NCBI GenBank assembly: GCA_964435575.1
Contig: CAYSZS010000003.1
Span: 1-46,563 of the forward strand
Direction: 5' to 3'
Source of the DNA: an uncultured Gammaproteobacteria bacterium
Lineage (GTDB): Bacteria > Patescibacteriota > Microgenomatia > UBA8517
DNA: 46,563 nucleotides
Positions 15,731-36,983 of this stretch are shown piece after piece. The translations under genes and the position numbers were made by a program. The stretch's first letter is position 1; the number at the start of each line of letters is the position of its first letter. Below the pieces are notes generated by a model. That model worked only from the letters and a program-made list of their open reading frames with translations, was not told where the DNA came from and did not search any database.

Positions 15731-17266
15731 TTACCGTATAATTTCTTTCACCCCACCTTTTAAAGCAACTTCCACTGCTTCTTTGTCTGACCAGTCGTAT
15801 TCGACTCCGTTATAAACCATGCTTTTTTCATGGCCCTTTCCGAAAATGACTACGACATCGTCTTTTTCAGCTAATTTTTGTATTGCAAACGAAATCGCTT
15901 CCCCCCTTTCGGGAATCCTAATATAAACGCGCTTTCTACTTCGATGATTCGAATCATCATACTGATTTAACTCAATTTCCTTGGCATTTGTTTTTTTTGC
16001 ACCTTTAAGAATTTCCCTGATTATTTTATTAACGTCCTCGCTTCTGGGATCTTCGGCTGTAAAAATAGACGCATCCGCCAGCTTAACCGAAATCTTGCCC
16101 ATCATAGGTCTTTTCAAAACGTCTCTTTCACCCGCACAGCCAAAAATAGAAATTACCCTCCCTTTATGTCTTTTTCTCAAAAGCATAAGTACGTTTTCCA
16201 AAGAGTCTGGCGTATGTGCAAAGTCAATATAAATATTAATCCCCTTATCATTTTCTACTTTTTCCAGTCTTCCCGGTAATTGCGGTAAACTTGCCAAAGT
16301 TTGCTGGATACTTTCCCAACTAATATCTAACCTCCTGGCGGCTGCTATTGCAGCCAAAAGATTTAATGCATTATACCTACCAACCAAATTAGATGTTATC
16401 TTATATTTTTCCTTCCCAATGTTAACTGCAAACCTCATCGCTTCATTTAAATGAAGTGGGCTGGCAGTATAATCTGCTTTACTCTTCAGAGAGTATGTTA
16501 GAAGCTGCGTCGTTTGTCTTAAAGTCTTTTTTATAAAATCGAAGGACTCGTCATCCTTATTTAAAATTGCCGTATTTACGGACTTAAAAAGTTTTGCTTT
16601 GGCTTCTTTATAGGCATCAAATGTTTTATGATAGTCAAGGTGCTCGTGAGTTATATTTGTCAAAATTCCCATTTCAAAATTAATCCCCGCCACTCTTTCC
16701 TGATCAAGTCCATGCGAGGTTACTTCGAGAACCGCATACTCGCAGTCAGCCCCGACCATGTGCGATAAAAATTTCTGGAGTGCAAGTGGTTCTGGATTCG
16801 TCACATGGAATCCCGTATCCAATTCCTTATCAGCTATTCTGGCGCTAATTGAAGAAACAAGACCAACGCTTTTCCCAGCGTTTTTCAAAAGCCAATATAA
16901 CACATGTGCTACAGTTGTTTTTCCTTTGGTCCCTGTTACTCCAATCACTTTCAAAGACTTACTTGGATATCCATACCAAGCGGAGGCTAGTATACTTAAT
17001 GCCAGGCGAGAATTTGTTACTTTTACGTATGTAATTTTTTTTAACCAATCTTTTTTTGGTTCTATCTCCCCAACAATCACGCTGGCTTTTTCTTTTATAA
17101 CCTGAGGAATAAACATATGAGCATCTGTTTTTACTCCTTTAATCGCAACGAACAGAGTCCCTTTTTCTACCTGTCTTGAATCATCATTAATAGCATTCAC
17201 GTTAACATCGGTAGAACCATAAGTTTGGCCTAAAGAAGTGCTTTCAAGAAGGTTTGCTAGCTTCAT
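15731..17266 (-). CDS. murE: UDP-MurNAc-dipeptide--diamino acid ligase MurE
   Basis: DDSRQV, GVTGTKGKTT, EVTSHGLDQ, HEHLDYH, PGRLE, DFAHTPD, FGCAGERD, EDPR, GKGHE. Confidence 0.97.
   Translation of the reverse strand: MKLANLLESTSLGQTYGSTDVNVNAINDDSRQVEKGTLFVAIKGVKTDAHMFIPQVIKEKASVIVGEIEPKKDWLKKITYVKVTNSRLALSILASAWYGYPSKSLKVIGVTGTKGKTTVAHVLYWLLKNAGKSVGLVSSISARIADKELDTGFHVTNPEPLALQKFLSHMVGADCEYAVLEVTSHGLDQERVAGINFEMGILTNITHEHLDYHKTFDAYKEAKAKLFKSVNTAILNKDDESFDFIKKTLRQTTQLLTYSLKSKADYTASPLHLNEAMRFAVNIGKEKYKITSNLVGRYNALNLLAAIAAARRLDISWESIQQTLASLPQLPGRLEKVENDKGINIYIDFAHTPDSLENVLMLLRKRHKGRVISIFGCAGERDVLKRPMMGKISVKLADASIFTAEDPRSEDVNKIIREILKGAKKTNAKEIELNQYDDSNHRSRKRVYIRIPERGEAISFAIQKLAEKDDVVVIFGKGHEKSMVYNGVEYDWSDKEAVEVALKGGVKEIIR
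15943..15958. repeat. perfect 16-bp palindrome inside murE
   Basis: GATGATTCGAATCATC is its own reverse complement; encodes part of YDDSNHRS. Confidence 0.7.
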
Positions 17267-18552
17267 TTGATTTCCTTAATCTCTGCACCAAGCGAGCGTA
17301 GATTCCTTGCAAAGTCCGGGTGTCCTCGATACAAAGAATCTGCATTTAAAATGACCGTTTCTCCCTCTGCAATCATCGCAGCCATCACCATTGCAACAAC
17401 AGCACGAATAATATATGGCGCCTCAAGTGTGCCACCCTTGAGTTTCTTTCCTGCTATTACCACGACTCTATGGGGGTCAGCCATAATAACCTCCGCTCCT
17501 AACTTTGTTAATTCGCTCGTCCAGAAAAGTCCGGATTCATACATCCAATTGTGAAATATCATGTAACCACTTGGAGCGGTTAGCGCTAAAGGAATAAAGT
17601 TTGGTAGAAGGTCAACAGGAAGTCCGGGCCAAGGTTGGGCTCTAACAACGTTAGTCTTTTTTTCAAAAGAGCCTGTAAATCGTATGTCCTGATTCTGGCG
17701 AACAATTGCTGTGTCATTTTCGTACTCAATATTAATGTTAAATTTGGAAAATTCATAATTTATCTGGGGAAAAAGCTCCGGATGTGAATTGTGTACCTTT
17801 ATTTCACCACCGGTTGCGGCACCAAGAGCGAGAAAGGTTGCTATTTCGTTGTGATCATGCAAAAGCTCATATGTTACAGGTGACAAATTCTTCCCACCGC
17901 TTATCTCAAGGACATTTGTTCCAACTCCTTTTATATCTGCTCCGGCCTTAACCAGAAAATTGCACAAATCCTGTACCTGTGGTTCAGAAGCAACGCCATT
18001 CAATCCTGTTTTCCCTTTTAAAGTTACCGCAATCATTACAAGTGTACTCGTAACCGAAACGGCCATTTCTGTTAGCCAAACATTTGTTGCAACTGCACTG
18101 GTAGCGTCCATCACAACGCCATCGTCTACTTCTTTAACAACAATTGATAGGTCACGGAAGGTTTTATAAAAAGGTTCAAAAGGCCTAATTCCAAGAGTAC
18201 AACCGCCCGGAAGTTCGGAAAAATCAACCTTCCTAAAACGCCCCAAAAGCCCCCCCCACATGAGAGCCGATGCTTTCATATCCCCCAAATCTTCTTCGCT
18301 CAAACTATGAAAGTCCATGCTGGAATTATCCAAAATCATCGTCTTCCTCACCTTGTCCCAAGCAATCTTTCCTCCTAACTTCTTCAAAATATGAACTAAT
18401 TTGTCAACATCACTAATATCGGGAATGTTTTGAAGCGTTACTTTCTCCTCAAAAAGAAGCGTTGCAGGCAAAATGTGTACAGCAGAGTTCTTGCTTCCTG
18501 AAGGGTAAATTTCGCCCGATAAAACCTGACCGCCCCTAACTTTAATATTCAT
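17263..18552 (-). CDS. murA: UDP-GlcNAc enolpyruvyl transferase MurA (Cys type)
   Basis: GSKNS, LPGGCTLGIRP, PWPGLPVD, LYRGHP; co-oriented with the dcw operon. Confidence 0.93.
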   Translation of the reverse strand: MNIKVRGGQVLSGEIYPSGSKNSAVHILPATLLFEEKVTLQNIPDISDVDKLVHILKKLGGKIAWDKVRKTMILDNSSMDFHSLSEEDLGDMKASALMWGGLLGRFRKVDFSELPGGCTLGIRPFEPFYKTFRDLSIVVKEVDDGVVMDATSAVATNVWLTEMAVSVTSTLVMIAVTLKGKTGLNGVASEPQVQDLCNFLVKAGADIKGVGTNVLEISGGKNLSPVTYELLHDHNEIATFLALGAATGGEIKVHNSHPELFPQINYEFSKFNINIEYENDTAIVRQNQDIRFTGSFEKKTNVVRAQPWPGLPVDLLPNFIPLALTAPSGYMIFHNWMYESGLFWTSELTKLGAEVIMADPHRVVVIAGKKLKGGTLEAPYIIRAVVAMVMAAMIAEGETVILNADSLYRGHPDFARNLRSLGAEIKEIK

Positions 18553-18582
18553 ATCGTACTTATATATTCTATCACTAAAAAG

Positions 18583-20295
18583 CTAATTTTCAGGCTGAAT
18601 TCCAAAATGAATAAACAAATCACTTGCAATTTTATACCAAAGAGGAGCCGCGGTCTCAGACGCCCAAGGAGATGATTTCGGTTCCTTAAGACTTATAAGC
18701 ATCACAAATTTAGGATCGTCGTATGGAGCAAAGCCAATATATGATGCAATCGTCTTCTCTTCATCATAGTGCCCCTCAATCGGAATTTGAGCGGTTCCGG
18801 TTTTCCCGGCCACCCTAAATCCTCTTTTATATGCCCATTTCGCTTCGCCGCTTTTTGCTGCCTCGACCATCATTCCCGTCATTTCACCCGCTGCCTTTTC
18901 GGAAATAACTCGTTTCCCACTTACCGGTTTTATATCCTCTTCCCAAGAATCCTCCTTAATTTTATCTACAACCTGTGGAGTAATTTTTAACCCTTTATTC
19001 GCAATCACCGAAACCGCCGAAACCATCTGAATGGGACTGACCGCCACCCCCTGTCCGAATGCCGAAGTTGCCAAATCAATTTGCCCCCACTCGTCTTTTT
19101 CTCTTAAAACAGGATTGGCTTCTCCTTGCAGATCTATACCGGTTTTCTCTCCTATTCCAAAGCTACTAAGATAATCATATAATTTTTCGCTGCCAAGTTT
19201 TTGGGCAACATAGACCATGCCTACATTATCTGAGTGAACAATAACGTCAATCATTGATGATTCGGGATAATAAACCTGATCCCACGTCTCAATCAAATAC
19301 TTATCAATCGCGATTGGGCCGCTACATTTATCACACTTAGTTTCTGGTCGAACAACGCCCGCGTCAAGTGCTGATGTCATTACCAAGATTTTGAAAATCG
19401 ACCCGGGTTCAAATGACTGAGAAATTGCAGGATTTGTAAAAAACTCATTTCCAAATTTCCAGTACTTGTCCGGCTCATACGAAGGATACGAGCTCATTGC
19501 CAATACCGCTCCATTTTTGGGATTAATAACAATTCCTACGCCGCTTTCTGCTTCATATTTTTCTAAACCCCGAACCAGCTCTCTATCAAGAGTAATCTGA
19601 ACAAATTTATCTATGTGTGTCAATAAACTTACGCCTTTAACAGCCGCAGCCTCTCTTCCCCTTTCAAGAAGAATCGGAAGTCCACCCACATCTCTTTCTT
19701 GGAGTAAATATCCGGGTTTACCCGATAAAGCGATATCATAAAAACCCTCTAGCCCAAAATAGCCAACGTCTCCTCCCTCTTCATCTTTTCCGACAAAACC
19801 CAAAAGCTGGGCAGCCATTGAAGCTTCGGGATAGACACGCTTTTCTTCCTTTTCAAACCCGATGCCCTCTAAATTAAGACTCTCTATCTCCTCTTTCACA
19901 ACTCTATCGACTCTGTGCTTAAGGGGTACCCATAAAGCACCTTCTTTATCTAAAAGATTATTAAGTCGGTCGATTTCTATAAAAAGCTCTTTTTTGTCGT
20001 TTACGTCTTCAACAAAGAAAGGTGCGAGTCTTTCAGCTAATTTTTCGGTATCCGATTTGAGATCAGGTAAGTTTGCAAAAACAAGGTATACCTCGCCGCT
20101 TGCTGCAAGCCAACTTGCGTCAGATGCTAAGATATCGCCGCGAGTAGCCGAAACCAAAGATTGGCTTTGATACTGACTTCGCGCTTGAATTGAAAGTTCT
20201 TTTCCCTTCAATATCTGCCAATAAAATAACCTAACAAGAAGAGTTAAAAAGGCGATCAAAAACAAATAGAATATTATTTTGAGTCGAAGTGTCAT
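18583..20295 (-). CDS. ftsI: class B penicillin-binding protein (FtsI/PBP3-like)
   Basis: N-terminal TM, RGDI, RVYP, GLEG, EPGSIFK (SxxK), SDN, KTGTAQ; follows the ftsL position. Confidence 0.88.
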   Translation of the reverse strand: MTLRLKIIFYLFLIAFLTLLVRLFYWQILKGKELSIQARSQYQSQSLVSATRGDILASDASWLAASGEVYLVFANLPDLKSDTEKLAERLAPFFVEDVNDKKELFIEIDRLNNLLDKEGALWVPLKHRVDRVVKEEIESLNLEGIGFEKEEKRVYPEASMAAQLLGFVGKDEEGGDVGYFGLEGFYDIALSGKPGYLLQERDVGGLPILLERGREAAAVKGVSLLTHIDKFVQITLDRELVRGLEKYEAESGVGIVINPKNGAVLAMSSYPSYEPDKYWKFGNEFFTNPAISQSFEPGSIFKILVMTSALDAGVVRPETKCDKCSGPIAIDKYLIETWDQVYYPESSMIDVIVHSDNVGMVYVAQKLGSEKLYDYLSSFGIGEKTGIDLQGEANPVLREKDEWGQIDLATSAFGQGVAVSPIQMVSAVSVIANKGLKITPQVVDKIKEDSWEEDIKPVSGKRVISEKAAGEMTGMMVEAAKSGEAKWAYKRGFRVAGKTGTAQIPIEGHYDEEKTIASYIGFAPYDDPKFVMLISLKEPKSSPWASETAAPLWYKIASDLFIHFGIQPEN

Positions 20296-20298
20296 TTG

Positions 20299-20613
20299 TC
20301 ATCTTATAACTTGGGCAAAAGGATCTCCGATTTTTATGTAAAACGTATTACTAGCTTTTACGTATCCCAGAGCCTCGGCTTTCTCGCTAAGAGAAAGAAG
20401 TGATGTGGATTTAATCAACTCGTCCTCCAGTTTTTTGTTTTCCTCGCTAATAACATGAGACCTATTTTCCAAATCTGAAAACTCCGCGCCAAGAGCCCCC
20501 TGTTGAACGCTGAATATGACTTGTATGAATATAAAAAAGGCCAGCAAAAACCATAAAGATTTGGCTCCAGGTCTTAATTTATTTCGGTAGTCTCGTTTTT
20601 TGGTAAATCTCAT
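20299..20613 (-). CDS. FtsL-like bitopic coiled-coil protein
   Basis: 104 aa, one TM, coiled coil, AEALGY motif; between rsmH and ftsI. Confidence 0.7.
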   Translation of the reverse strand: MRFTKKRDYRNKLRPGAKSLWFLLAFFIFIQVIFSVQQGALGAEFSDLENRSHVISEENKKLEDELIKSTSLLSLSEKAEALGYVKASNTFYIKIGDPFAQVIR

Positions 20614-21608
20614 TTTTTTTGTAAAATTCTCATTTTTGCGCTTCTAGCCCTCGGATTTTCCTTAATTTCTTCCGTACCGGGAATAATGGCTTTTTTTGAA
20701 ATGATTAAAGCTCGTCCTGAATCCTCTATCACTTTAAAAAAATGCTTTGTCAGTCTGTCTTCCCCCGAATGAAAACTAATTACGACAAGTCTTCCACCAG
20801 ATACTAGTAGTTCTAGCACTTGGGGTAAGGCTTGTCTTAAATTATCAAGCTCGCTATTGACGGCAATCCTTAGGGCCAAGAAAGGTAAAGTTGCGCCGTG
20901 AAGCTTTGGCTTTATCTTGTAATCGTCACCGATGACCATTAAAAAATCTCCAACAGTTTTTATTTCTTTCTTCTCCCTTACGTCAATTATCTTTTTTGCC
21001 AAAACTTTCGCTCTATCCTGGGTTAAGGTTTCCTTAAAAACCTGGGTAAGCTGACCAATATTAAGCGCTTTCAACAGGTCCGAGGCGGTGACTTTTTGAT
21101 TAACACTATCCAGTCGCATGTCCAAAGGTACCGTTGAATCCTGAAACGAAAACCCCTTAATTTTTTTGGTCAATTGATAACTGGAAATCCCCAGATCAAA
21201 AAGTATCCCGTCAACTTGATCAAAGCCTTTTTCTAGCGCGATTTTCTTTAGATCTTTGAAGTTGCCATGAACGAGAGTATATGACCCCCGAGTCGGACTC
21301 GGAGTAGGGACGGGTACCATACGATACCCGTCAGGGACAGACACCGTATGGTGTCTGTCAGGGCAGGCTTCTATTAATCTCTCTCTAGCTATCTCCAAAG
21401 ATTCGCTGTCCGCTTCAATCCCCAAAACGTTACCACCAGACTTAACAATTTCTATTGCATGACCACCTAAACCAACCGTTGCGTCAATATAGCGTGCTTG
21501 CCTGCCTGCAACTCTTTGCAGAGCACCGCGGGCAGGATTTTTAATGTGCAAGGCACTAAGTACTTCTCGAACCATCACCGTCTTGTGATTATTGTCTTTT
21601 TCGTTCAT
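20610..21608 (-). CDS. rsmH: 16S rRNA m4C1402 methyltransferase RsmH, with two in-frame insertions
   Basis: HKTVM, DATVGLGGHA, DLGISSYQ, PLDMRLD, ALRIAVNSEL, ISFHSGEDR, NPRARSAKMR. Confidence 0.97.
   Translation of the reverse strand: MNEKDNNHKTVMVREVLSALHIKNPARGALQRVAGRQARYIDATVGLGGHAIEIVKSGGNVLGIEADSESLEIARERLIEACPDRHHTVSVPDGYRMVPVPTPSPTRGSYTLVHGNFKDLKKIALEKGFDQVDGILFDLGISSYQLTKKIKGFSFQDSTVPLDMRLDSVNQKVTASDLLKALNIGQLTQVFKETLTQDRAKVLAKKIIDVREKKEIKTVGDFLMVIGDDYKIKPKLHGATLPFLALRIAVNSELDNLRQALPQVLELLVSGGRLVVISFHSGEDRLTKHFFKVIEDSGRALIISKKAIIPGTEEIKENPRARSAKMRILQKK
21288..21362. repeat. array of three adjacent hairpins inside rsmH (15-nt plus two 24-nt units separated by AGG)
   Basis: CCGAGT-CGG-ACTCGG; AGG; GACGGGTA-CCATACGA-TACCCGTC; AGG; GACAGACACC-GTAT-GGTGTCTGTC; AGG. 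Confidence 0.85.
21501..21536. repeat. 36-nt REP-like palindrome inserted in frame in rsmH
   Basis: CCTGCCTGC...GCGGGCAGG termini with inner CTCT-GCAA-AGAG hairpin on the coding strand; encodes PARGALQRVAGR. Confidence 0.85.
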
Positions 21609-22032
21609 CTCTGGCCAACTCCTCGATGTAAGCCGCAGAATCTTTTGCCAAGCTTTTTTCCTTTTCTAGCCAGCTTTCTTTGTTCCAAATTTCAATCCTA
21701 TCGCCAAGTCCGATGAAATAAAGTTCGTCCTCAAGATTTGCGTAACTTACGAGCCTATCGGGAATAACAATTCTTCCTTGATCATCAGGTACGGACTCAT
21801 ATGCTGAACTGAAAATAAACCTTTCGGTGTCCCTAACCGGTGTGGGTAACATCTTTTGACTTCCGGTCAATCTTTTTAATAACGCCTCCCATGAATCTCT
21901 GGCAACCAAAACCAAACAACCCTCATACCATTTGGCTAAAATAAAGCTTTCTCCAAGATCGCGTCTCAAAGGAGCAGGAACCGCAACGCGTCTTCCTGCT
22001 GCAAATTTTGCTAAATATGTTCCCAGGAACAT
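21589..22032 (-). CDS. mraZ: division/cell wall cluster transcriptional repressor MraZ
   Basis: MFLGTY, DDQGRIVIP, FIGLGDRIEIW; first gene of the dcw cluster. Confidence 0.93.
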   Translation of the reverse strand: MFLGTYLAKFAAGRRVAVPAPLRRDLGESFILAKWYEGCLVLVARDSWEALLKRLTGSQKMLPTPVRDTERFIFSSAYESVPDDQGRIVIPDRLVSYANLEDELYFIGLGDRIEIWNKESWLEKEKSLAKDSAAYIEELARDERKRQ

Positions 22033-22074
22033 TATTATTTGTCATAAGGGCAGATGAGGTTTGAAATAGTATTC

Positions 22075-22100
22075 ACCATTTCTCACCATTTATAACCATT
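22075..22100 (-). promoter_or_regulatory. putative MraZ operator: three AATGGT direct repeats with 10-bp period
   Basis: plus-strand ACCATT at 22075, 22085 and 22095, upstream of mraZ and overlapping the -10 box. Confidence 0.8.
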
Positions 22101-22126
22101 CTGATCTATTTTCACATAGGTGTCAA
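22098..22126 (-). promoter_or_regulatory. dcw (mraZ) sigma70 promoter
   Basis: minus strand TTGACA(22126-22121)-17 nt-CAGAAT(22103-22098). Confidence 0.65.
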
Positions 22127-22179
22127 GGCCAAGATTACCCGAAACTTGAAGCTGTCTCAAACTTGTGTAAAATTGAGGG

Positions 22180-22920
22180 CTATTGAGTGCTTCCGAAGAA
22201 AATTCCTATATCGGAAGACCTATTTTCGAAAAGTTTCTGCCAGTTATTACCGTCCCAGTAATAAACATTATCAAAACCTAAATCTACTGTTCCGGAAACT
22301 TTTTGGGGAGACGAAGAAAAGATTCCATAAGGACCTGTTTCGACGTCAGAGGGAGATTCTCCCGGATATCCAACAGTACTCATAGCTACAAAAAATTCCT
22401 CGGACTCTTTTTCCAGCTCATAGTTAAATACTTTATCGATTGACGTCAAAAGGTCGGTTGAAGTTTGCATATGAAATTCGCTTTCAAATTTTGCCAGAAG
22501 TTTCCCTTGGGAATTTCTAAATTTCAAACTAATTGTCCCTTCCTCAACTCCTTCATCATACCTAAACTTACCGGAAGACTCACTTCCCAAAAGGAGATCG
22601 GCTTCGAAATTATCTTTAGCCTTAACGTCTACCGTCCCCGGAACTCCTTGAAGGACACCGTCTTTGGTCTTATATAAAAGTTCATAATCTAGACTTGCCG
22701 CGTCAATTGTAATTTTATCTATATTAAGATACAAATAATGACCGTCTTCGCTTGGCGTGAGGGAAACAATGGGGCGCTCATTTAAGGCAACATCCAAAAG
22801 TGCAATCTCTTCTTCAGGTTCTTCAGATTCTCCTCCCTTTCTTCCCCGAACAAATAGAAAAGCCCCGACAATTACCAAAATTCCGATTCCAAGAAGTATA
22901 AGCGGTAGGTATTTTTTCAT
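22180..22920 (-). CDS. membrane-anchored acidic extracytoplasmic hypothetical protein
   Basis: 246 aa, N-terminal TM, beta-rich acidic domain (LLLGSESSGKFRYDEGV). Confidence 0.8.
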   Translation of the reverse strand: MKKYLPLILLGIGILVIVGAFLFVRGRKGGESEEPEEEIALLDVALNERPIVSLTPSEDGHYLYLNIDKITIDAASLDYELLYKTKDGVLQGVPGTVDVKAKDNFEADLLLGSESSGKFRYDEGVEEGTISLKFRNSQGKLLAKFESEFHMQTSTDLLTSIDKVFNYELEKESEEFFVAMSTVGYPGESPSDVETGPYGIFSSSPQKVSGTVDLGFDNVYYWDGNNWQKLFENRSSDIGIFFGSTQ

Positions 22921-23000
22921 GAATTATATGGTTGAATAGTTAAATTGTTACATGGCTAAAAACTACTGTCAATCATACAGCCATCTAATCATAAAGCTAT

Positions 23001-24302
23001 CTAGCTATTTCCTAATTTCTCCTTAAACCATCCTTCCAAATTGTCGATAATGACTCTTTCCTGCTTCGCCGTATCCCTATCTCTTATTGTTACAGTGTCA
23101 TCTTCGAGAGTTTGAAAATCTATTGTCACACACCAAGGCGTTCCAACCTCATCTTGCGCGAAGTAACGTTTGCCAATGTTACCGCGGGAATCCCATACTA
23201 CGTGCAGATTTTTTGATAATGTTTGGTAAATTTCTCTTGCTTTACTTGCTAAGTCATCTTTGTTTGCCAAAAGAGGAAAAACTGCTGCTTTATATGGTGC
23301 AAGCCGAGGGTTTAATTTTAAGTAAACCCGAGGTTCTGAACTTGTCGAAGAATCCTCTGTTAAAGCATCAATAAGGAAAAATAATGCTGCCCTGTCAACA
23401 CCACCAGAAGTTTCAATTACCCAAGGAACATACTCCTCACCAGCATCATCTTTATAAGAAAGCTTATGGTTTTTAAGATCGTAGTCTCCCCGATGATGAA
23501 TTCCCTCGAATTCTTTCCAGCCGAACGGGGAATTGTACTCGATATCAGTAGCAAAACGTGCATAATGGGCTCTTTCATCCGACTCATGGTCCCTGTGACG
23601 AAGGTTTTCTTTTTTTATTCCAAGTCTTTTATACCAACTTAGTCTTTCTTCTTTCCAGTATTCAAATGTCTTTTTAGATTCTGACTCATCCGGTTTTACA
23701 AAATACTCCAGTTCCATTTGCTCAAATTCCCTGCTTCTGAAAGTGAAATTCCCCGGAGTGATCTCATTCCTGAAAGCTTTGCCTATTTGTGCTATTCCGA
23801 AAGGAATTTTTATTCTTGTCGAATCAACGACGTTTTGAAAATTGACAAAAACTCCCTGGGTAATTTCTCCCCGAAGATATGCCTTCTGTTTGGGTTCAGT
23901 TACACCTAAAAATACCTCTGTCATCAAATTAAACGACTTTGGTTCTGTCCATTCAACTTTCTGACCCTCGTGCGTTTTCTCATGTTCTACTTTTGCCTCT
24001 TCGTTATCGGCACGAATTCGCTGGTGACAGATCTTACATTCAACTAAGGGGTCTGTGAATGCATCCAAATGGCCTGATGCTTTCCAGACTTCGGGGTTCA
24101 TGATTATCGCCGCGTCAATTCCCACAACGTCTTCACGATCATAAACCATGTCTTTCCACCATTGTCTCTTGATATTATTTTTAAGCTCAACCCCCAAAGG
24201 TCCATAGTCCCAAAACCCGGTTAACCCCCCATAAATCTCACTTCCTGGATATATAAATCCCCGTCTTTTGGCAAGAGAAGTAATTTTCTCCATCAAATCC
24301 AT
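23001..24302 (-). CDS. glyQS: glycine--tRNA ligase, homodimeric (alpha2) type
   Basis: LAKRRGF, DYGPLG, SGH, IGKAFRNEITPGNFTFRSREFEQME, GNIGKRY anticodon domain; start moved to ATG 24302 (TATAAT 6 nt upstream, avoids overlap with the divergent gene). Confidence 0.96.
   Translation of the reverse strand: MDLMEKITSLAKRRGFIYPGSEIYGGLTGFWDYGPLGVELKNNIKRQWWKDMVYDREDVVGIDAAIIMNPEVWKASGHLDAFTDPLVECKICHQRIRADNEEAKVEHEKTHEGQKVEWTEPKSFNLMTEVFLGVTEPKQKAYLRGEITQGVFVNFQNVVDSTRIKIPFGIAQIGKAFRNEITPGNFTFRSREFEQMELEYFVKPDESESKKTFEYWKEERLSWYKRLGIKKENLRHRDHESDERAHYARFATDIEYNSPFGWKEFEGIHHRGDYDLKNHKLSYKDDAGEEYVPWVIETSGGVDRAALFFLIDALTEDSSTSSEPRVYLKLNPRLAPYKAAVFPLLANKDDLASKAREIYQTLSKNLHVVWDSRGNIGKRYFAQDEVGTPWCVTIDFQTLEDDTVTIRDRDTAKQERVIIDNLEGWFKEKLGNS
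23331..23356. repeat. REP-like imperfect hairpin inside glyQS
   Basis: coding strand AGG-A-TTCT-TCGACAAGTTC-AGAA-CCT, encoding the extra peptide SSTSSE. Confidence 0.5.
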
Positions 24303-24363
24303 ATTTGAATTATAACTATTTAATTGATTCTTATCCATAGGTCGAACTATAATCAAAACACTC

Positions 24364-24843
24364 ATGTCTCATACAGGAGAGAAAATCTGCTTTACCGTAA
24401 ATGCACTCATAACTCACAAAGACAAAGTTCTGCTGGTTTTTCATAAAGACTATCAAACTTGGTTTCCACCAGGCGGTCATGTTGAAAAAGAGGAAGATCC
24501 GGAAACTGCTGTTTACAGAGAAATTGTTGAAGAAACAGGATTAACTAAAAACGAGTTAACCCCTATCGAAAACAAATTTGAAGCAAACGAAAACATTTTT
24601 TCTGATATGAGTGGAAGACTTCTTATATCACCACTTTATAGCGATATCCACACTATTGGTCCTAATCGCGAACATGTTGGTCTAAGATTCTTTTTCAAAA
24701 GCACAAAGGAAATTGTTGTATCTTCGGATGATGACACTACTGAAATAAGATGGTTTACCATCGAAGAACTTAATGGTCATAAATACAATCTGCGAAAACA
24801 CGTCATATTTTACGGTGAAATCGCGATAAGGTTGTCCGCATAG
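24364..24843 (+). CDS. NUDIX hydrolase
   Basis: Nudix box GGHVEKEEDPETAVYREIVEETG. Confidence 0.9.
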   Translation: MSHTGEKICFTVNALITHKDKVLLVFHKDYQTWFPPGGHVEKEEDPETAVYREIVEETGLTKNELTPIENKFEANENIFSDMSGRLLISPLYSDIHTIGPNREHVGLRFFFKSTKEIVVSSDDDTTEIRWFTIEELNGHKYNLRKHVIFYGEIAIRLSA

Positions 24844-24928
24844 ATAGGCGTTTGAAAGACATCTTTGTTTCAAAACAAAAATTTACGGAATATAAAAGCC
24901 AACACTTCGACAAACTGGCGAAATTATA

Positions 24929-26062
24929 CTACTCCTCTCCGCTATCTAATTCAAGAGTTTTAATATCTGGAAGTTTATTGTCCATAACTCCCTGCAATTC
25001 ACCAAACATTCTCGAAGTATTAAGTTGCATTCTTTTAAGTTCCGTTTCTCGTTTTTTCCAAATCCTTTCCATTGACCTTCGTTCGGTTAACAAATCCTCC
25101 TCCATTGCTTTAACCCCGTCTGCGAAGGCCTCAAAGCGGTGTCTAAAAGCATCGCTTTGAATATATTCATACAGGAGCTCTAGTTTTTCATCTTTATTCA
25201 CACTTGCTGATTTTGCCTGAGCTATAAGCATTAAATTACGTCTTAACACGCTAGCAATAGATAAACAATATGTTATAGACGTCACAATTACTCCTTCAAT
25301 TACCTTAAAATTATCAATTTCAGAGGGTGGGTTTTCGCAGACCAGAACAATCATCGTTGCATCGTTTTTCCGCCCGTCCTCTTTCAATTTCGGAATCCAG
25401 GACTTCGTCCACTTTGCTCTCTTCGTTTCCCATAAAATTACGCCGGCTAATTTTCCGTTTTGATTTTTGACATTTTGCAAAATATCAGCTCCTTGCACTC
25501 CTTTCCCGATCGGAGTTATTTCATCGTAAACAAACGCGTTTTTCAGTTTTTCTTCCAAGTCAAGTTCAAGCACTTCACCCTGGAGTTGCTGGGATTTTTG
25601 TGTCCCTTTGGCTTTAGCTTCTTCCAAAGCCCTCTGCATATCATCGTTTTTCTTCTTTAGTTCGGCAATTTCGAGAGAAACTGCTTCGCGTTCTTGATTC
25701 GAAGCCTCTTTCCTAATTTTTTCTTCGTTCTCTACGAGCTTTCTCTTCATTTCCAATTCTCTTTCTTCATCCCGCCTTCTTAACATCCTCATTTGATCAT
25801 TCATTTGTTCCAATTCTTTTAATAATTTATTGTTTCTGATAACCTCTTCCTCTTTTTCTTTTTCCAAACGCCTGATTTGAAGGTCAAAATCTTTTCTTAG
25901 CTTTTCGAAAGCCTCGTCTTCTGCTTTTTTTGAAGCTTCAATCAACTCCTTCTGATGCTGCAACTTTAAAGACTCAAGAACCTGCTCTTCCACTTGATGA
26001 GTTAAAGCTTCGGAAATCTCAATTTGCTCGCCGCAACGTGGACATTTGAAAGTTACCGCCAT
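24929..26062 (-). CDS. DUF2130 family coiled-coil protein
   Basis: N-terminal CPRCG, long coiled coil, SQQLQGEVLE, GADILQ, ILWETKR, WIPKLKED, ERRSMERIWKKRE. Confidence 0.85.
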   Translation of the reverse strand: MAVTFKCPRCGEQIEISEALTHQVEEQVLESLKLQHQKELIEASKKAEDEAFEKLRKDFDLQIRRLEKEKEEEVIRNNKLLKELEQMNDQMRMLRRRDEERELEMKRKLVENEEKIRKEASNQEREAVSLEIAELKKKNDDMQRALEEAKAKGTQKSQQLQGEVLELDLEEKLKNAFVYDEITPIGKGVQGADILQNVKNQNGKLAGVILWETKRAKWTKSWIPKLKEDGRKNDATMIVLVCENPPSEIDNFKVIEGVIVTSITYCLSIASVLRRNLMLIAQAKSASVNKDEKLELLYEYIQSDAFRHRFEAFADGVKAMEEDLLTERRSMERIWKKRETELKRMQLNTSRMFGELQGVMDNKLPDIKTLELDSGEE

Positions 26063-26094
26063 AATGATTCTGATTGTATCACCAATTCGAACCT

Positions 26095-26646
26095 CTAGGA
26101 GAGAATCTTTTTGCCAACCCGAATTGTAGACATCTCTCTCTCAGTAATCTCGACTAACACCTTGTCCGGGTCTTCCATTTTCTTCCCCAACGGCCAGAAA
26201 CCCAAAAGCACGAGGACTTCCATGATGAAATCGCTCCTCAATTCCTTTAAACTTGTTTCTTGATTATTTTCGACTTTTTTCAAATATGAAATTAGTAGTT
26301 CAAAAAGACGGTCATTTTTTTCTTCATCGTGAGTCAATCTTCCCACAACTTCCATTAAAAAATAAGAAAGCGCCGCCTTTTTTAAGTTAGTTCGTATTTT
26401 CTGAAAGTCGCTTATAGTTTCCGCCTCGGTGATAACGCCCAATCCCTTTCCCCCAGATACTGAAAATCTTAGGTTACTGAAAACTTCTATATGGCCTCTT
26501 TTTCTACTTCTGGGTTTACGAACGCCCTTAGCAACAAGTCTAAGTTTCCCGAAACTCTTACTATAAATTACCAAAATTCTGTCGGCTTCGCCGTAATTTT
26601 TTCTGGCAAGAACCACTCCCTCTGAAGAAAAATTTCGGGGTCTCAT
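26095..26646 (-). CDS. recO: DNA repair protein RecO (short form)
   Basis: EGVVLARKNYGEADRIL, GKLRLVAKGVRKPRSR; 183 aa, no Zn-finger region. Confidence 0.92.
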   Translation of the reverse strand: MRPRNFSSEGVVLARKNYGEADRILVIYSKSFGKLRLVAKGVRKPRSRKRGHIEVFSNLRFSVSGGKGLGVITEAETISDFQKIRTNLKKAALSYFLMEVVGRLTHDEEKNDRLFELLISYLKKVENNQETSLKELRSDFIMEVLVLLGFWPLGKKMEDPDKVLVEITEREMSTIRVGKKILS

Positions 26647-28650
26647 CTAAATAGTCAGCCTCAATTCCTTATCGGTTTTTAAGAAAAATTCTTCTTTGTG
26701 TTTTTTAAGACTGACAGAATACAAAGGGGAATTGGTTCCGGGCTGTTTTTGAATGAATAATCCATACTCTTTATCTACCTTGAAAGGCAATTTATACTTG
26801 AGGGTTACTTTTGCAATCCCCTCGGGTCTTAGCTTGAAAAAGCCGGCAAAAACCGTTTTTTCCAATTCTTCGTAAGGGTCGGCCTTTTCTTCAACACCGG
26901 AAAAATCAATTAGTTCGCTCCCTTTGGGAACATAAATTCTCACCCAGTTTGGAAGAACCGAATTAAGCCAACCGTCATGTTTCTCCGGGTTTTTGTAAGT
27001 AATTGTCACGGTCTTTACAATACTTCCGTCTTTACCTATTTCTATCTCCTGCGAAATCTCCTCTTTAATGTACAAATTTGATTTTCTTCCGCCCAAATTG
27101 GCATTATTTATATGAAGATAGTCTCCCTCATAGTTTTTAAGAGTCCCGGCAATTCCGAAGATAGAAAGCGCTTCCTGCGACTTTTTGTCACCGGTATAAA
27201 AAAGTACGTGTTTTTCGATAAGCGACTTAAAGACCGCCTCAAAAAGAGGAGCCAGTTTTTCTTTAGGCTGCCCCAAAGCGTTGGCCAAAATCGAATTCAT
27301 CAAGGGCCCGATAATCTTTTTTCTGTTATCATAATTAGGAGGAGCATAGACAATTTTCCCGGGTTCATTTTCGCTCCAAACGATAGGACCTTCTATGTCA
27401 GCAAAGCTTTCAAGCTCGTAAATGACTTGAGGACATCTGCATTCAGGAACCTCTTTTGTCGAGTACTCCCCGAATCCGGAAACACCTATTGGCCCAATTA
27501 CGTCAAGGATGTTAACCAAAACCTGTGTATCAACCGCAATTATGCCGTCGATATTTTTAATTCCGACTGATTCTGCCTCTTTAGCAAAAAGTTTCATTGC
27601 TTCTCCAAAATCAGGCGACCAATTCATATCCCTGAGACGCAAATTCTCTGACAATAGGTAAGGCCCCTTAATATATTTGATGAGGGGTTCGGGGGCCGCA
27701 ACTTTGGGCTTATATGTATTATCCAAATTGTAAATATCATCCGATAATACGGGTTCAAACCTGCCTTTATTGACCTTGGCAATAGAGTAGGCCGTTATAA
27801 ATCCACCTGTGGGCCTTAGTTCCTTGTCATTCTGAAAAATTACTAAGTATCTTTTTTCGTCCTTGATACCTAAAAGATCCGGGGCAACCTCCAATAAGGG
27901 CTTAGAGTTTGCTACCAACTCACCGGCTACATCAACTATGTCTTTTCCTTCTTTAAGTTTTTCTCTTATTGCAAAATCAAAAGCATTTTCTGGATAGCGC
28001 TCCGGGTCAATTGAATCTACTTCTTTTTTTATCAACTCTGCCTTTTCGGAAAGTAAATCAATCTTTGGAATTAGATCGGGAATCGTCTTTATTACAAAAT
28101 CAATTCTGTCTTGAGTTGTCTCTTCGGGACTTCCCAACTCTTTTGCGTCTGTAGCAAAACCAATGATATCTGCATACGGCTCAATGGTTTCGATAACTAT
28201 GTCAGCTGCCTCAAACGCATATTTCGCGGCAGAAATTGCACTTTGCCCATCTTTTATATATGAACCAAAAAAGGGGACAATCTTAAGCCAAGAAATCCCT
28301 TTATATGAGGAATCAAGCTCTCTCAAAGAGGTTTGAGATGTCTTCAATTCTTTTTTAATCTTTTCCAAATCTTGATCTGTAACTGCCTGTTTTATATTGT
28401 CTAAGGATTTTCTGAAAATCTGAGCTTTTGCATAAACTCTAAAACCCAACAGGCCAATAACGGCTACAACGATTACAAAGACCAACAAAATTGAGCCAAG
28501 AATTTTGGCCCGCTTACTTTTTGGAAATTTTAAAGAAAACCTCCTTATCTTTTTCATTGAAACTTCGGACTTTTTTTCGTATTTATCAGACAAAGAAATT
28601 TTAGGAATTAAAATGGATCCACTATCTTCTGTATTAAAATTTTCAGACAT
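26647..28650 (-). CDS. DUF4012 domain membrane-anchored protein
   Basis: one TM, helical stalk, YLVIFQNDKELRPTGGFI, LRDMNWSPDF, DGIIAVD, NLGGRKSN, QKQPGT. Confidence 0.85.
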   Translation of the reverse strand: MSENFNTEDSGSILIPKISLSDKYEKKSEVSMKKIRRFSLKFPKSKRAKILGSILLVFVIVVAVIGLLGFRVYAKAQIFRKSLDNIKQAVTDQDLEKIKKELKTSQTSLRELDSSYKGISWLKIVPFFGSYIKDGQSAISAAKYAFEAADIVIETIEPYADIIGFATDAKELGSPEETTQDRIDFVIKTIPDLIPKIDLLSEKAELIKKEVDSIDPERYPENAFDFAIREKLKEGKDIVDVAGELVANSKPLLEVAPDLLGIKDEKRYLVIFQNDKELRPTGGFITAYSIAKVNKGRFEPVLSDDIYNLDNTYKPKVAAPEPLIKYIKGPYLLSENLRLRDMNWSPDFGEAMKLFAKEAESVGIKNIDGIIAVDTQVLVNILDVIGPIGVSGFGEYSTKEVPECRCPQVIYELESFADIEGPIVWSENEPGKIVYAPPNYDNRKKIIGPLMNSILANALGQPKEKLAPLFEAVFKSLIEKHVLFYTGDKKSQEALSIFGIAGTLKNYEGDYLHINNANLGGRKSNLYIKEEISQEIEIGKDGSIVKTVTITYKNPEKHDGWLNSVLPNWVRIYVPKGSELIDFSGVEEKADPYEELEKTVFAGFFKLRPEGIAKVTLKYKLPFKVDKEYGLFIQKQPGTNSPLYSVSLKKHKEEFFLKTDKELRLTI

Positions 28651-28665
28651 ACTAAATATATTACA

Positions 28666-29319
28666 CTAAACGGCTCCTTTTCCTGAAATCATTGCCCAGG
28701 GAGTTTTAAGAAGAATGAGTATATCAAAAAGAATTGATTTTTTTCTGGCATAATAAGCATCCATTTCAATTCTTTTGTCAAACTTGACTTCGCTTCTCCC
28801 TGAAACTTGCCAATAGCCTGTTATGCCGGGCTTAACCGTATGCACCTCTTTTACAAAGATATCTGTTCCAGGATATTTCTCCTGTTGCTCTCTTAACTCG
28901 TCCGGAAGGTATGGCCTCGGACCGACGATGCTCATCTCGCCTTTTAAAACGTTAAAAAGTTGGGGCATCTCGTCAATCGAAAACTTACGGATTATCTTAC
29001 CCAATTTAGTTACTCTGGTATCTTTAAAAGATTTGTAACTGCCGCTTGTTCTTTTTTCAATAAAAACATTTCTGAATTTTGGGTCGGTTTTTTCCAATAT
29101 ATCGGCCTTAACCATCATTGAGCGGAATTTGTAAAGTCTGAATATTTTCCCGCTTTTTCCCACTCGCTTCATGTGTAAATTTTCTTTCTCGACCAAAACC
29201 GGTCCTGGAGAAGTAATCTTAATAAGAACTGCAGTTATTAGCATAACGGGAGAAAAAATGATCAGAAGAAAAAAGGAGCCAACAATATCTACGGTTCTTT
29301 TTATAACCTCGTAATACAT
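28666..29319 (-). CDS. priming sugar-phosphate transferase (Bac_transf; WcaJ/WbaP/PglC C-terminal type)
   Basis: KRTVD, YKFRSM, RKFSIDEMPQLFNVLKGEMSIVGPRP, KPGITGYWQVSGRS. Confidence 0.95.
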   Translation of the reverse strand: MYYEVIKRTVDIVGSFFLLIIFSPVMLITAVLIKITSPGPVLVEKENLHMKRVGKSGKIFRLYKFRSMMVKADILEKTDPKFRNVFIEKRTSGSYKSFKDTRVTKLGKIIRKFSIDEMPQLFNVLKGEMSIVGPRPYLPDELREQQEKYPGTDIFVKEVHTVKPGITGYWQVSGRSEVKFDKRIEMDAYYARKKSILFDILILLKTPWAMISGKGAV

Positions 29320-29342
29320 ATCCGGGCAGGATTATAGCATGG

Positions 29343-30428
29343 TTAATCTATAAATTCAGGGTTCTCTTCTTCTAGTTTTTTAAACAAATCTTTTACTTTT
29401 GCGGTGTCACTCATATTACAAACCAATAAAGCTCCATGCGTATCAACTACAACCACATTTTTTAAACCTACTATGGCAATCATTTTTTCTCCTTCTCCGA
29501 TAATAAGAACTCCAGAACTATCAATGAATTTAGTTTTAACTTCACCTTCAATTACATTTTCTTCATTTGGCTCAATCATCGCTTTATAAAAAAGTTCCCA
29601 GGTACCCGCATCTTCCCACTCTGTCTCAGTTGCCATCGTTAGTCTCAAATCTATTGGCAACTTTTCAAAAAGCCCATATTCCACAGATACTTTTTCAAAC
29701 TTCGCATACTCGGTTTTGAGTACTTCTTCGTACTTTTCAGTACCCCACGCATCCATAATTTTAACCAATCCCTCATAGGTTGCAGGTGAATATTCTTTGT
29801 AGTACGAAAGCATTAAATCTGACCTCCACGTAGCATATCCCGTGTGAATTAGATAATTATCTTTCTTAAAAAGATCGTTTGCCGTAGCTTCGTCAGGCTT
29901 TTCTATGTGCCTGACTATTTTATAAACAGGAAATCCACTTTCTTCGCCAACCTTTTCACCAAATTCGACCCATCCATTATGAATGGTTGGATATGTCGGT
30001 TTCTCATTTAGTGAAACAGATGTTCCTGTTCTGGCAGTGTATTCCATCGCTGCCTTTGCGGTATTTAAAAATATTTGAACCTTCCCAATAAAGTGATCTG
30101 ACCATGAAAAAAACATAACTTCTTTTGGAAATCTTTTTTCAACAATTGCTGCAACTAAACCTACAGCCCCAAGGCTATCTTTTCTTTCTGGTTCCAATAT
30201 TATATTTTCTGGAGGAATTTCAGGTCCTTGATCCATCACAAGTTGTTTGTATTTGGCTTCTGTAGAAATTAATATATCCTTTACATCAAAAGCTTTCGTA
30301 TATCTTTCAAGAGTTCTTTGGAAAAAAGATTTCCCTTTAACGATATACCTAAATTGTTTTGGGTAAGACTTGGTGCTGGTAGGCCACATACGCGTGCCAA
30401 AACCGCCACAAAAGATTACTACTTTCAT
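29343..30428 (-). CDS. mannose-1-phosphate guanylyltransferase (ManC-like, no PMI domain)
   Basis: GGFGTRMWP..PKQF, ILEPERKD, SDH, EKPD, WEDAGTW, VGLKNVVVVDT. Confidence 0.88.
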   Translation of the reverse strand: MKVVIFCGGFGTRMWPTSTKSYPKQFRYIVKGKSFFQRTLERYTKAFDVKDILISTEAKYKQLVMDQGPEIPPENIILEPERKDSLGAVGLVAAIVEKRFPKEVMFFSWSDHFIGKVQIFLNTAKAAMEYTARTGTSVSLNEKPTYPTIHNGWVEFGEKVGEESGFPVYKIVRHIEKPDEATANDLFKKDNYLIHTGYATWRSDLMLSYYKEYSPATYEGLVKIMDAWGTEKYEEVLKTEYAKFEKVSVEYGLFEKLPIDLRLTMATETEWEDAGTWELFYKAMIEPNEENVIEGEVKTKFIDSSGVLIIGEGEKMIAIVGLKNVVVVDTHGALLVCNMSDTAKVKDLFKKLEEENPEFID

Positions 30429-30481
30429 ATATTTATTATTCTAAACACTTGTGTGAAAAAGTGTAGCAAAAATAATTATAT

Positions 30482-31654
30482 TTATCTATTCATATGTTTT
30501 TCAACTATCTTTTTAAATTCTTTTTTGAACCTCTCCTTTGAAAACCTTTCAGCATTTTTTATCAAAACATCTCTATCGAATTTCATTTTCTCAAATCTTT
30601 TTACTGCTTTAATCAGACTTTCTTTGTTTTGTTTTTCGAAAAATACCCCCGTTTTCCCGTCAATAACTGTGTCGAGTGAGCCACCCTTTTTATAAGCTAT
30701 GACGGGCGTTCCTGCAGCTTGGCTTTCAACGGCAGCTATTCCAAAATCTTCCTCTTGGGGAAAAACAAATGCTTTTGCACCTTTGTAGAGATCAACTAAT
30801 TCCTCGTCAGTTACAAAACCTTTGAAAATAATGTTTTTCTTAAACTTATACTTAGACTTAAACTTTTTCTCCTCACTACCTGTTCCAACAACAACTAATG
30901 GAAATCCAAGCTCATTAAAAGCCTCAATCGCCAAATCCACCTTTTTGTAACGTACAAGTCTTGAAACAATCAAGTAAAACTTCTTCTCTCTCTTCTCCCC
31001 CGATTTTACAACGTAATCAACATCCGATATTGATTGATATGCAATATCGGGATAGCCGTAGTCGTGTCCTCTCAATCTTGGTTTTGGAGTCTGAAATTTT
31101 ACAATTTCTACTGGAGGAAAAATTATTCCCGGATCACGATCATAATATCTTTTTATCCTCATCTGTACTTCGGTAGAAATTGCTACCATAACGTCGGGTC
31201 TTTGAGAAGCAATTCTGTCCCACGCTCTCAAGTAACTAACAATAGGTTTTGTTACTGCTTGCAAGGTCAAACCCTGGAGGTAAGTCTCACAATGACTCCA
31301 AAGATACCGCGTGGGGGTTAAACAATAACAAATATGAAATGTCCCCGGTTTAGTAATTATTCCTTTTGCTGCTTCGCTAGTTACGGAAATCACAAGGTCG
31401 TACCCTGAAAAATCTAGAGTTTCAAACGCGACAGGCATCAAGAAAGCTAGAATCTCGTGCCTCCTCTGCATAAAAGGAATTTTCTGTAAAAAAGAGGGGA
31501 TTACTTTAGGAAAAACTTTCGCCCAAGGTGCACGCTTTTCATCATAGACAGACGTATAGAGTGGAGCTTCAGGAAACATTTCATGAAGAGCTAAAAGAAC
31601 CCGTTCTGCTCCACCCCACTTATTCACCCTGTCGTAAACAATTGCTGTTTTCAT
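30482..31654 (-). CDS. GT4 glycosyltransferase (WbaZ-like) with an inserted linker
   Basis: GGAERVL, YCLTPTRYLW, VSRLVRYKKVDL, EEDFGIAAVESQAAGTPVIA. Confidence 0.93.
   Translation of the reverse strand: MKTAIVYDRVNKWGGAERVLLALHEMFPEAPLYTSVYDEKRAPWAKVFPKVIPSFLQKIPFMQRRHEILAFLMPVAFETLDFSGYDLVISVTSEAAKGIITKPGTFHICYCLTPTRYLWSHCETYLQGLTLQAVTKPIVSYLRAWDRIASQRPDVMVAISTEVQMRIKRYYDRDPGIIFPPVEIVKFQTPKPRLRGHDYGYPDIAYQSISDVDYVVKSGEKREKKFYLIVSRLVRYKKVDLAIEAFNELGFPLVVVGTGSEEKKFKSKYKFKKNIIFKGFVTDEELVDLYKGAKAFVFPQEEDFGIAAVESQAAGTPVIAYKKGGSLDTVIDGKTGVFFEKQNKESLIKAVKRFEKMKFDRDVLIKNAERFSKERFKKEFKKIVEKHMNR
30999..31051. repeat. nested palindromes inside the GT4 linker
   Basis: CCGATATTG(31024-32)/CAATATCGG(31042-50) perfect 9-bp stem; overlapping AATCAACATC-C-GATATTGATT; outer CCCGA/TCGGG. 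Confidence 0.65.
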
Positions 31655-36879: not shown

Positions 36880-36913
36880 TTATATAATTGCTTCTACAGT
36901 TAGGGTTAAGATG

Positions 36914-36956
36914 CCCGTTTCGGTCACGTTAGACGTCAAACGATTCACGATACGGG
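36914..36956. repeat. intergenic imperfect long hairpin
   Basis: CCCGTTTCG...CGATACGGG outer stem with inner CGTTAGACGTCAAACG near-palindrome. Confidence 0.5.
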
Positions 36957-36983
36957 TTTCGTTACCGTTACCTCTGAAATTAG

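Follow-up and report, generated by a model that had tools for sequence, protein, structure and literature searches.

The 46,563-nucleotide (nt) stretch of DNA analyzed here (the window) is contig C3, positions 1 to 46563, of a 1.116-Mb assembly from an uncultured bacterium of the Patescibacteriota (58 contigs, 38.4% G+C, completeness of 95%), and several of its conserved genes contain DNA hairpins. These hairpins are probably copies of short palindromic repeats (15 to 57 nt) that are dispersed in the genome and fall into several families. The repeats resemble the repetitive extragenic palindromic (REP) sequences of other bacteria and lie mostly between genes but also, in frame, inside housekeeping genes. 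The intragenic copies are multiples of three bases long, have no stop codons, and add disordered loop peptide to the protein. An earlier examination of the letters alone (the sequence-only reading) had singled out five such sites, two in rsmH and one each in murE, glyQS, and a GT4 glycosyltransferase gene, and had attributed them to a hairpin-inserting process. The observation was partly confirmed, being real for both rsmH sites, murE, and GT4, and its interpretation as insertion was partly supported. The gene identities it had given agree with Pfam. In what follows, G000 is this genome and G001 that of a sister species of the same genus, and open reading frames (ORFs) are crude longest-ORF calls covering ~91% of the genome bases.

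Hairpins inside rsmH, GT4, murE, and glyQS

The rsmH gene (MraW methylase; positions 20610 to 21608, minus strand; Pfam Methyltransf_5, 250.7 bits) holds two of the sites. One of them, at 21288 to 21362, consists of three hairpins. The sequence CCGAGTCGGACTCGG (21288 to 21302, 7-bp stem) belongs to the AGTC-N-GACT family (F3) and is followed by two tandem 27-nt units (21309 to 21362, RsmH residues 83 to 100), each made of a 24-nt hairpin of the GGTACC family (F1) plus AGG, with stems of 8 bp (21309 to 21332) and 10 bp (21336 to 21359). Sites were folded as DNA and evaluated by the z score and by the number of 200 shuffles that folded as well; segment 21285 to 21365 reached −24.5 kcal/mol (z = −5.24) and was equaled by none of the shuffles. 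The other site, at 21501 to 21536 (residues 25 to 36), is a 36-nt nested palindrome of the CCTGCC...GGCAGG family (F2), whose outer stem encloses an inner one (−9.5 kcal/mol, z = −2.71, 3 of 200 shuffles as good). Compared with the RsmH ortholog of the sister species, the F1 tandem units are extra sequence and the F2 palindrome corresponds to an insertion of 7 amino acids (aa). RsmH was modeled with AlphaFold2 from an alignment of 20 sequences. The model had a mean predicted local distance difference test (pLDDT) score of 87.4, and the only internal segments with pLDDT below 50 (residues 26 to 33, 85 to 87, and 95 to 104) were the two inserts, whose peptide includes PDRHHTVSVPDGYRMVPVP. The predicted position of the inserts, in low-confidence loops of an otherwise confident model, agrees with the surface loops that the sequence-only reading had expected.

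The rsmH stretch was reproduced in independent metagenome contigs, which argues against an assembly artifact. Positions 21100 to 21700 were identical in single independent contigs of two runs, while a third run matched 21100 to 21535 only; these runs may include the source sample, and the identity shows only that another assembler agrees. Contigs of run X20 end at 21332 and restart at 21402, which proves nothing. The runs holding this stretch are labeled groundwater, soil, and sediment.

The GT4 gene (30482 to 31654, minus strand; Pfam Glycos_transf_1, 122.5 bits) contains in frame a REP-like element of ~57 nt, or 19 codons (30997 to 31053), in which positions 30999 to 31051 form a 9-bp stem with a 9-nt loop (z = −1.80; 9 of 200 shuffles as good). 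The protein is 19 aa longer at this point than its same-genus ortholog, and the added peptide includes GYPDIAYQSISDVDYVV. The claim made for this site also held, as the element is one of six dispersed copies of ~53 to 57 nt with the consensus CCCGAT.TT..AACGTAATCAA.ATCCGAT.TTG...GAATATCGGG. Two of the six are intragenic, the one in GT4 and another, also in frame, in the linker-coding part of a signal-peptidase-like gene (C2:50400-50455); two more flank a gene similar to REP-associated tyrosine transposases (RAYTs), and the last two are intergenic. The GT4 ortholog of the sister species (G001 L032:8831-9916) lacks 22 residues (KGFVTDEELVDLYKGAKAFVFPQ) of the conserved C-terminal domain and may be damaged or misassembled at that gap.

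A perfect 16-nt palindrome, GATGATTCGAATCATC (15943 to 15958, family F4), encodes YDDSNHRS in a variable loop of MurE (murE, 15731 to 17266, minus strand; Pfam Mur_ligase_M, Mur_ligase_C, and Mur_ligase). Its fold had a z score of −1.81, with 7 of 200 shuffles as good. Allowing up to two mismatches, the genome has 4 copies of F4, where shuffles gave 0.6 on average; an exact second copy is intergenic (C9:28593), and one with a single mismatch encodes YDDSNQRS in the same-genus GT4 ortholog. The MurE loop of the sister species is longer at this site, so the palindrome is not a species-specific insertion, and what stands of the original claim is a perfect palindrome belonging to a dispersed family. 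The fifth site, in the glycine-tRNA ligase gene (glyQS, 23001 to 24365, assigned by Pfam), had to be discarded. Its imperfect, bulged stem (23331 to 23356) is indistinguishable from chance (z = −0.75; 50 of 200 shuffles as good), the protein differs from that of the sister species by just a 3-aa indel, and no repeat family was found for the stem.

Repeat families and species-specific insertions

The genome has 111 GC-rich perfect stems (at least 50% G+C) of 8 bp or longer, compared with 24 to 35 in five local dinucleotide shuffles, and 22 of 10 bp or longer, compared with at most 1. Several families could be defined. F1, a 24-nt hairpin around GGTACC-N4-GGTACC, has 17 copies (shuffle mean of 3.8), F2 has 15 (0.0), F3, in which AGTC-N-GACT is surrounded by covarying outer pairs, has 13 (1.6), and F8, a GGCC-rich palindrome of 30 to 33 nt that came to notice only among the insertions, has 7 (0.0). 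The motifs are therefore multicopy. Only 62 of the 111 GC-rich hairpins fall within ORF calls, which span 91% of the genome, indicating that hairpins as a whole are enriched between genes; inside ORFs are 11 of the 15 copies of F2 and 6 of the 7 of F8. Among copies with matches on both sides, no intergenic one splits a gene, and for this reason frameshifting or ribosome bypass at intergenic copies was rejected. Within genes that have orthologs, CCTGCC was read as Pro-Ala in all eight cases, which points to a filter acting on F2 at the peptide level. One intergenic region (C5:5290-5412) presents hairpins of the GGTACC type, the CCTGCC..GGCAGG type, and a type with a GTTTACA loop side by side within ~130 nt, a mosaic that resembles the arrangement inside rsmH.

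To compare the two species, ORFs were called identically in G000 and in 1.10 Mb of G001, giving 541 reciprocal-best ortholog pairs with a median identity of 78%. Insertions of 5 to 40 aa private to G000 (n = 119, one run of N having been dropped) were contrasted with windows from the same genes and with shuffled versions of the inserted sequences. Of the 119 insertions, 21 had stems of 6 bp or more, compared to 39 of 593 control windows (P = 4e-4) and 81 of 1,190 shuffled insertions. The difference persisted when stems had to reach 7 bp (9/119 versus 12/593) or 8 bp (4/119 versus 3/593). Insertions private to G001 (n = 87) behaved similarly, with 16/87 versus 32/435 at 6 bp or more and 5/87 versus 0/435 at 8 bp or more. 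The inserted sequences were richer in G+C (0.47 to 0.49 versus 0.41), and a family motif was found in 16 of 119 G000 insertions and 4 of 591 controls. A test based on 14-mers repeated elsewhere in the genome already scored in 45% of control windows, as AT-rich 14-mers recur by chance.

Looking from the side of the repeats, and considering genes with an ortholog, the coding-sequence copies that overlapped a species-specific insertion were 6 of 7 for F2, 5 of 5 for F8, 3 of 5 for F1, and 2 of 5 for F3. Sites of 21 to 33 nt that are filled in one species and empty in the other were found in an LCP-family protein, topoisomerase I, CTP synthase, a ComM-like protein, and DNA ligase. F8 inserts of 30 and 33 nt are located in the LCP-family protein, topoisomerase I, and a third protein, where the element is read in three different frames (PPAQRASGLE, AAGPGGPLARR, and RRPGEASGQEG). 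F2 inserts of 21 to 24 nt are those of CTP synthase, the ComM-like protein, and DNA ligase, the first lying in a segment that has no counterpart in solved homologs. The same element at unrelated loci, one family in three frames, and empty sites in the sister species indicate insertions at the DNA level rather than conserved peptides. A clear minority of the private insertions are thus repeat copies. In G001, two tandem 21-nt units with a CCGAGTC-N-GACTCGG hairpin (L054:4069-4110) are inserted relative to G000, and their flank resembles a third, decayed unit, from which it appears that hairpin units also grow by tandem duplication.

These figures bear on an objection, namely, that the hairpins are inverted repeats that ordinary indels contain by chance or are artifacts of assembly. 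Chance accounts well for glyQS, the folds of murE and GT4 taken alone are marginal, and AT-rich 8-bp stems are near the shuffle expectation (347 in total versus 189 to 259 in shuffles). Against it are the enrichments of stems, families, and insertions, the presence of the same families in three independent genomes, and the identical independent contigs. For the other four sites we regard this explanation as largely refuted and as a general account very improbable.

A RAYT-like gene and the spread of the repeats

A Pfam search of the genome for Y1_Tnp matched in two places. The first, C2:19232-19903, is an intact gene of 223 aa (37.4 bits, cutoff of 23), single copy by tblastn (one match in G000), whose sole NCBIfam match is REP_Tyr_transpos (50.2 bits). 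The HYH in PNHYHFLL and the tyrosine in SRYIHLNP, read by eye, are what we take to be the HUH motif and the catalytic residue. The gene thus combines a Y1 HUH domain with a palindrome repeated in the genome on both flanks, where the GT4-type element is found, and it also has the low copy number without near-identical duplicates that, according to PMC5581495, separates RAYTs from IS200 transposases together with abundant flanking 16-mers. By association, a RAYT-like HUH gene can therefore be named as the mobilizer of the GT4 family. In the copies of this element, GTAA, GTAG, or GTAT appears by eye ~7 nt before the stem. The RAYT-like ortholog of the sister species (50% identity) is flanked by a different repeat, CCAAGGTGTGAA.CTATTTCACCTCTAAGGTG, which we counted at 10 places in that genome; in G000 there was one single-mismatch match to its second 13-mer (C16:20830) and no element around it. 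The linker of the signal-peptidase-like gene likewise carries different repeats at one site in the two species. The second Y1_Tnp match (C30:4683-5015, 93 bits) is an IS200-like frame interrupted by one TGA and one TAG and is probably a pseudogene. An ORF at 22180 to 22920, adjoining mraZ, was considered as a RAYT remnant and rejected, as it matched no Pfam family.

If the GT4-type element moves as described for IS200/IS608 and the Escherichia coli RAYT, the HUH enzyme would recognize the hairpin in single-stranded DNA, cut it, and rejoin it; such binding and cleavage by the RAYT-like protein is putative. Selection would then retain only the copies with a length multiple of three in tolerant surface loops. 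For the GGTACC, CCTGCC..GGCAGG, and AGTC-N-GACT families, the dispersal of the copies suggests the same kind of spread. The HUH mechanism is thus supported, by association, for one family only. Of the hairpin-inserting process postulated initially, insertion was supported genome-wide and the HUH component for that one family, while the GC-rich families of rsmH were left without an enzyme.

RAYT-like genes are widespread in the relatives of this bacterium, with diverged matches in 24 of 31 related genomes and up to 7 in each. At 12 of 26 such loci, short hairpins (13 to 31 nt) with the same stem were found on both flanks, and their types, CACTCC..GGAGTG and CCACC..GGTGG, are also dispersed in G000, with an occurrence in one insertion as well. 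Five genomes of 0.7 to 1.0 Mb (G021, G025, G014, G027, and G019) have 5 to 7 matches each, which is unusually high for genes described as mostly single copy. In three genomes (G007:C11, G017:C5, and G027:C3), a RAYT-like gene is located 0.5 to 3 kb upstream of mraZ-rsmH, and its flanking hairpins differ from those of the rsmH loop; this proximity may be due to chance or to an old syntenic position. Of 301 genomes sampled from the phylum, 92 contained the 12-nt core of F2, CCTGCCGGCAGG, in as many as 28 copies, and 9 (our own count) contained its backwards control.

A recurrent site in rsmH

In 7 of 20 genera, the conserved GCCTGCCCT (Ala-Cys-Pro) of rsmH is followed directly by a perfect stem of 8 to 11 bp, and the sequences of these stems are unrelated to each other. 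One genome outside this set (G017) has a 9-bp F1 hairpin at the same loop, overlapping the native Tyr-Arg-Leu-Val strand. The hairpin of G001 matches intergenic copies in both G001 and G000, and that of G027 is an F1 repeat with one other copy in its genome. In the simplest reading, this would be a tolerant loop that has been hit repeatedly. There is a precedent in Xanthomonas, where different REPs are located at about the same recB site in two species (PMC3733652), and the signal-peptidase linker is a similar case between our two species.

A stronger version of this idea is that the loop is an order-wide landing pad in which hairpin cassettes replace one another, with GC-rich palindromes spreading without an HUH transposase, for example by short-patch conversion between hairpins. 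The clearest candidate for such a spread would be CCTGCC..GGCAGG, which is always read as Pro-Ala...Gly-Arg/Lys or Ala-Gly. We consider this unlikely; were it true, these reduced genomes would have a process of their own for creating new protein loops.

The rsmH loop could also be seen as a conserved functional structure, either an RNA in the mraZ-rsmH-ftsL transcript or a DNA site, with the peptide as a passenger and no mobile insertion involved. In its favor are the perfect stems of differing sequence in 7 of 20 genera plus G017, when stems of at least 8 bp were found in only 3 of 593 background windows, and two sequences (L006 and L007) differ at the loop by three compensated pairs. The hairpin of another genome (G002) is single copy. 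However, for the hairpins of G000, G001, and G027, almost identical copies lie at other places in the same genome or in that of the sister species. At the site, 9 of the 20 orthologs have no stem longer than 5 bp, and three lack the loop. No Rfam family matched either (0 matches in a search of the whole window at gathering thresholds). Among 346 coding-sequence hairpins, 793 changes were one-sided and 72 compensated (~43 expected), so a general conservation of these hairpins between G000 and G001 was rejected; their crude colocation in the two species (72 versus ~22 expected) is mostly identical conserved sequence. A conserved structure thus seems improbable as the explanation for the loop.

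A third possibility is that palindromes arise and stay perfect in place by template switching during replication, through quasi-palindrome correction or hairpin-primed copying, without any mobile element. It fits the perfection of the stems, the palindromes that are single copy, the units duplicated in tandem, and the modest excess of compensated double changes just mentioned. It fits also an 11-bp stem that the two species share in position, at one conserved site of an RsmI-like gene (EDTRVTKKLL..., G000 C29:4963-5736 and G001 L076:52-765), built from different codons and with different neighboring residues (SSL versus AFL following). What it leaves unexplained are the near-identical elements of 21 to 33 nt at unrelated loci and in three frames, the F2 core in 92 of 301 genomes against 9 for its control, and the repeat families flanking RAYT-like genes, and we give it a low probability.

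We favor, then, the dispersed REP-like repeats, although several points weigh against them. A hairpin or family motif was found in only ~13 to 18% of the insertions, so most indels have another origin. The motif test is partly circular, as F8 and part of F2 were defined after the insertion list had been seen, and the gene calls are crude (longest ORF). The polarity of insertion or deletion was checked with outgroups for RsmH and CTP synthase only. No polymorphism for presence or absence of the repeats was seen in the metagenome contigs examined, and the single-copy hairpin of G002 does not behave as a repeat in its genome. As for the enzyme, the RAYT-like protein scores below the NCBIfam cutoff for REP_Tyr_transpos (50.2 versus 80), the GT4-type repeat has only six copies, and no GTAG tag abutting the hairpin was found in them. 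For the GC-rich families of rsmH, an HUH mobilizer found no support: none of the 26 RAYT-like loci had a motif of F1, F2, F3, F4, or F8 in its flanks, no Y1_Tnp match was beside the F2 sites listed for five F2-rich genomes, and the genome richest in F2 (28 copies, 79% complete) had no Y1_Tnp match.

Comparison with known palindromic elements

Two sources (PMC3733652 and PMC5581495) allow a comparison with the REP/REPIN-RAYT systems. According to the first, REPs occur inside genes in several species, more than half of them as dimers or groups encoding 20 to 30 aa; RAYT genes are flanked by REPs, and REPs of the CGTC type have no dedicated transposase. The similarities are considerable: short dispersed palindromes, a single-copy gene of the HUH Y1 type with the repeat on both flanks, a repeat family that is genome specific and replaced by another in the sister species, copies in frame inside genes that are often dimers or groups, and, as in recB of Xanthomonas, different repeats at about one site of one gene. 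The differences lie in the number of copies (6 to 17 per family, 4 for F4, rather than tens to hundreds), in the shorter hairpins (13 to 24 nt), and in the absence of a GTAG directly abutting the stem, which characterizes the GTAG-tagged REPs of PMC3733652. In addition, the protein is under NCBI's cutoff for REP_Tyr_transpos, most families here are without an associated enzyme, and, unlike the low-copy RAYTs of PMC5581495, up to 7 paralogs are carried by related genomes of less than 1.3 Mb.

The Rickettsia palindromic elements (RPEs), as summarized in PMC10969869, are also in-frame palindromic inserts in unrelated housekeeping genes of a small genome, with a peptide compatible with the fold. 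However, RPEs are ~100 to 150 bp long and have a conserved peptide, whereas the elements described here have 15 to 57 nt and F8 is read in three frames. In-frame intragenic REPs and RPEs have already been published, and what we describe is the same kind of event in a new lineage. A limited literature search found no publication in which Patescibacteria or the Candidate Phyla Radiation were connected with REPs, REPINs, or RAYTs.

In yeast mitochondria, mobile GC clusters and "byp" elements are short GC-rich hairpins that colonize the coding sequences of an AT-rich genome, and the byp elements are skipped by the ribosome. The copies found here differ from the latter in that they all keep the frame and none splits a gene.

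Palindromic repeats of several families, along with their domesticated HUH enzymes, persist even in very small genomes in which ORF calls take up ~91% of the bases. Essential proteins, among them RsmH, CTP synthase, topoisomerase I, and DNA ligase, measurably gain new loop peptide from such repeats. In annotation, an unusual GC-rich insertion in a protein of this group is not necessarily an error. The parts that merit further attention are the rsmH site that recurs among genera and the F2 palindrome found across the phylum, the former being a natural test of whether hairpins are merely tolerated or used.

The IS200 element and other features of the window

The first 54 nt of the window (plus strand) are the terminal A end of an IS200-family element, with a subterminal hairpin at 14 to 35 (z = −3.11). 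This end is shared by five contig ends (the start of the window, C11, C19, C21, and C28), and the partner B end is found at five others (C13, C18, C27, C29, and C45), so that a multicopy IS200 element breaks the assembly at ten contig ends. The full element, of ~575 bp, was found in a metagenome contig (L095:5484-6044), where a 153-aa Y1_Tnp ORF (L095:5518-5976, 123 bits) lies between hairpins at 5489 and 6003; the transposase gene falls beyond the contig end and was seen only there, not in the assembly. A Y1_Tnp ORF of ~150 aa, subterminal hairpins, and several copies place it in the IS200/IS605 group, and the marker for TnpB (PF07282) had no match in the genome (95% complete). Its hairpins differ from those inside genes, and no miniature derivative of it was seen. 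The statement that the window encodes no mobilizer is correct, yet an IS200 element ends at its first base; the search for HUH nucleases suggested at the time led both to this element and to the RAYT-like gene flanked by the repeat of GT4.

The sequence-only reading had grouped the hairpin at 14 to 35 and another at 36914 to 36956 as intergenic relatives of those in genes. The former belongs to the IS200 element, and the latter is part of a separate dispersed repeat of ~70 nt (36900 to 36970), even if its fold alone is within chance (36 of 200 shuffles as good). This repeat reads GATGCCCGTTTCGG...ATACGGGTTTCG; its 11-mer core, ATACGGGTTTC, is present at 8 places in the genome, mostly between genes, with longer copies at C8:17920-17990 and C2:34830-34900 and a further site at C26:2120-2190. 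Nearly all the genes of the window, and almost all its long ORFs, are on the minus strand, and the GC skew is negative in every 2-kb bin along its length.

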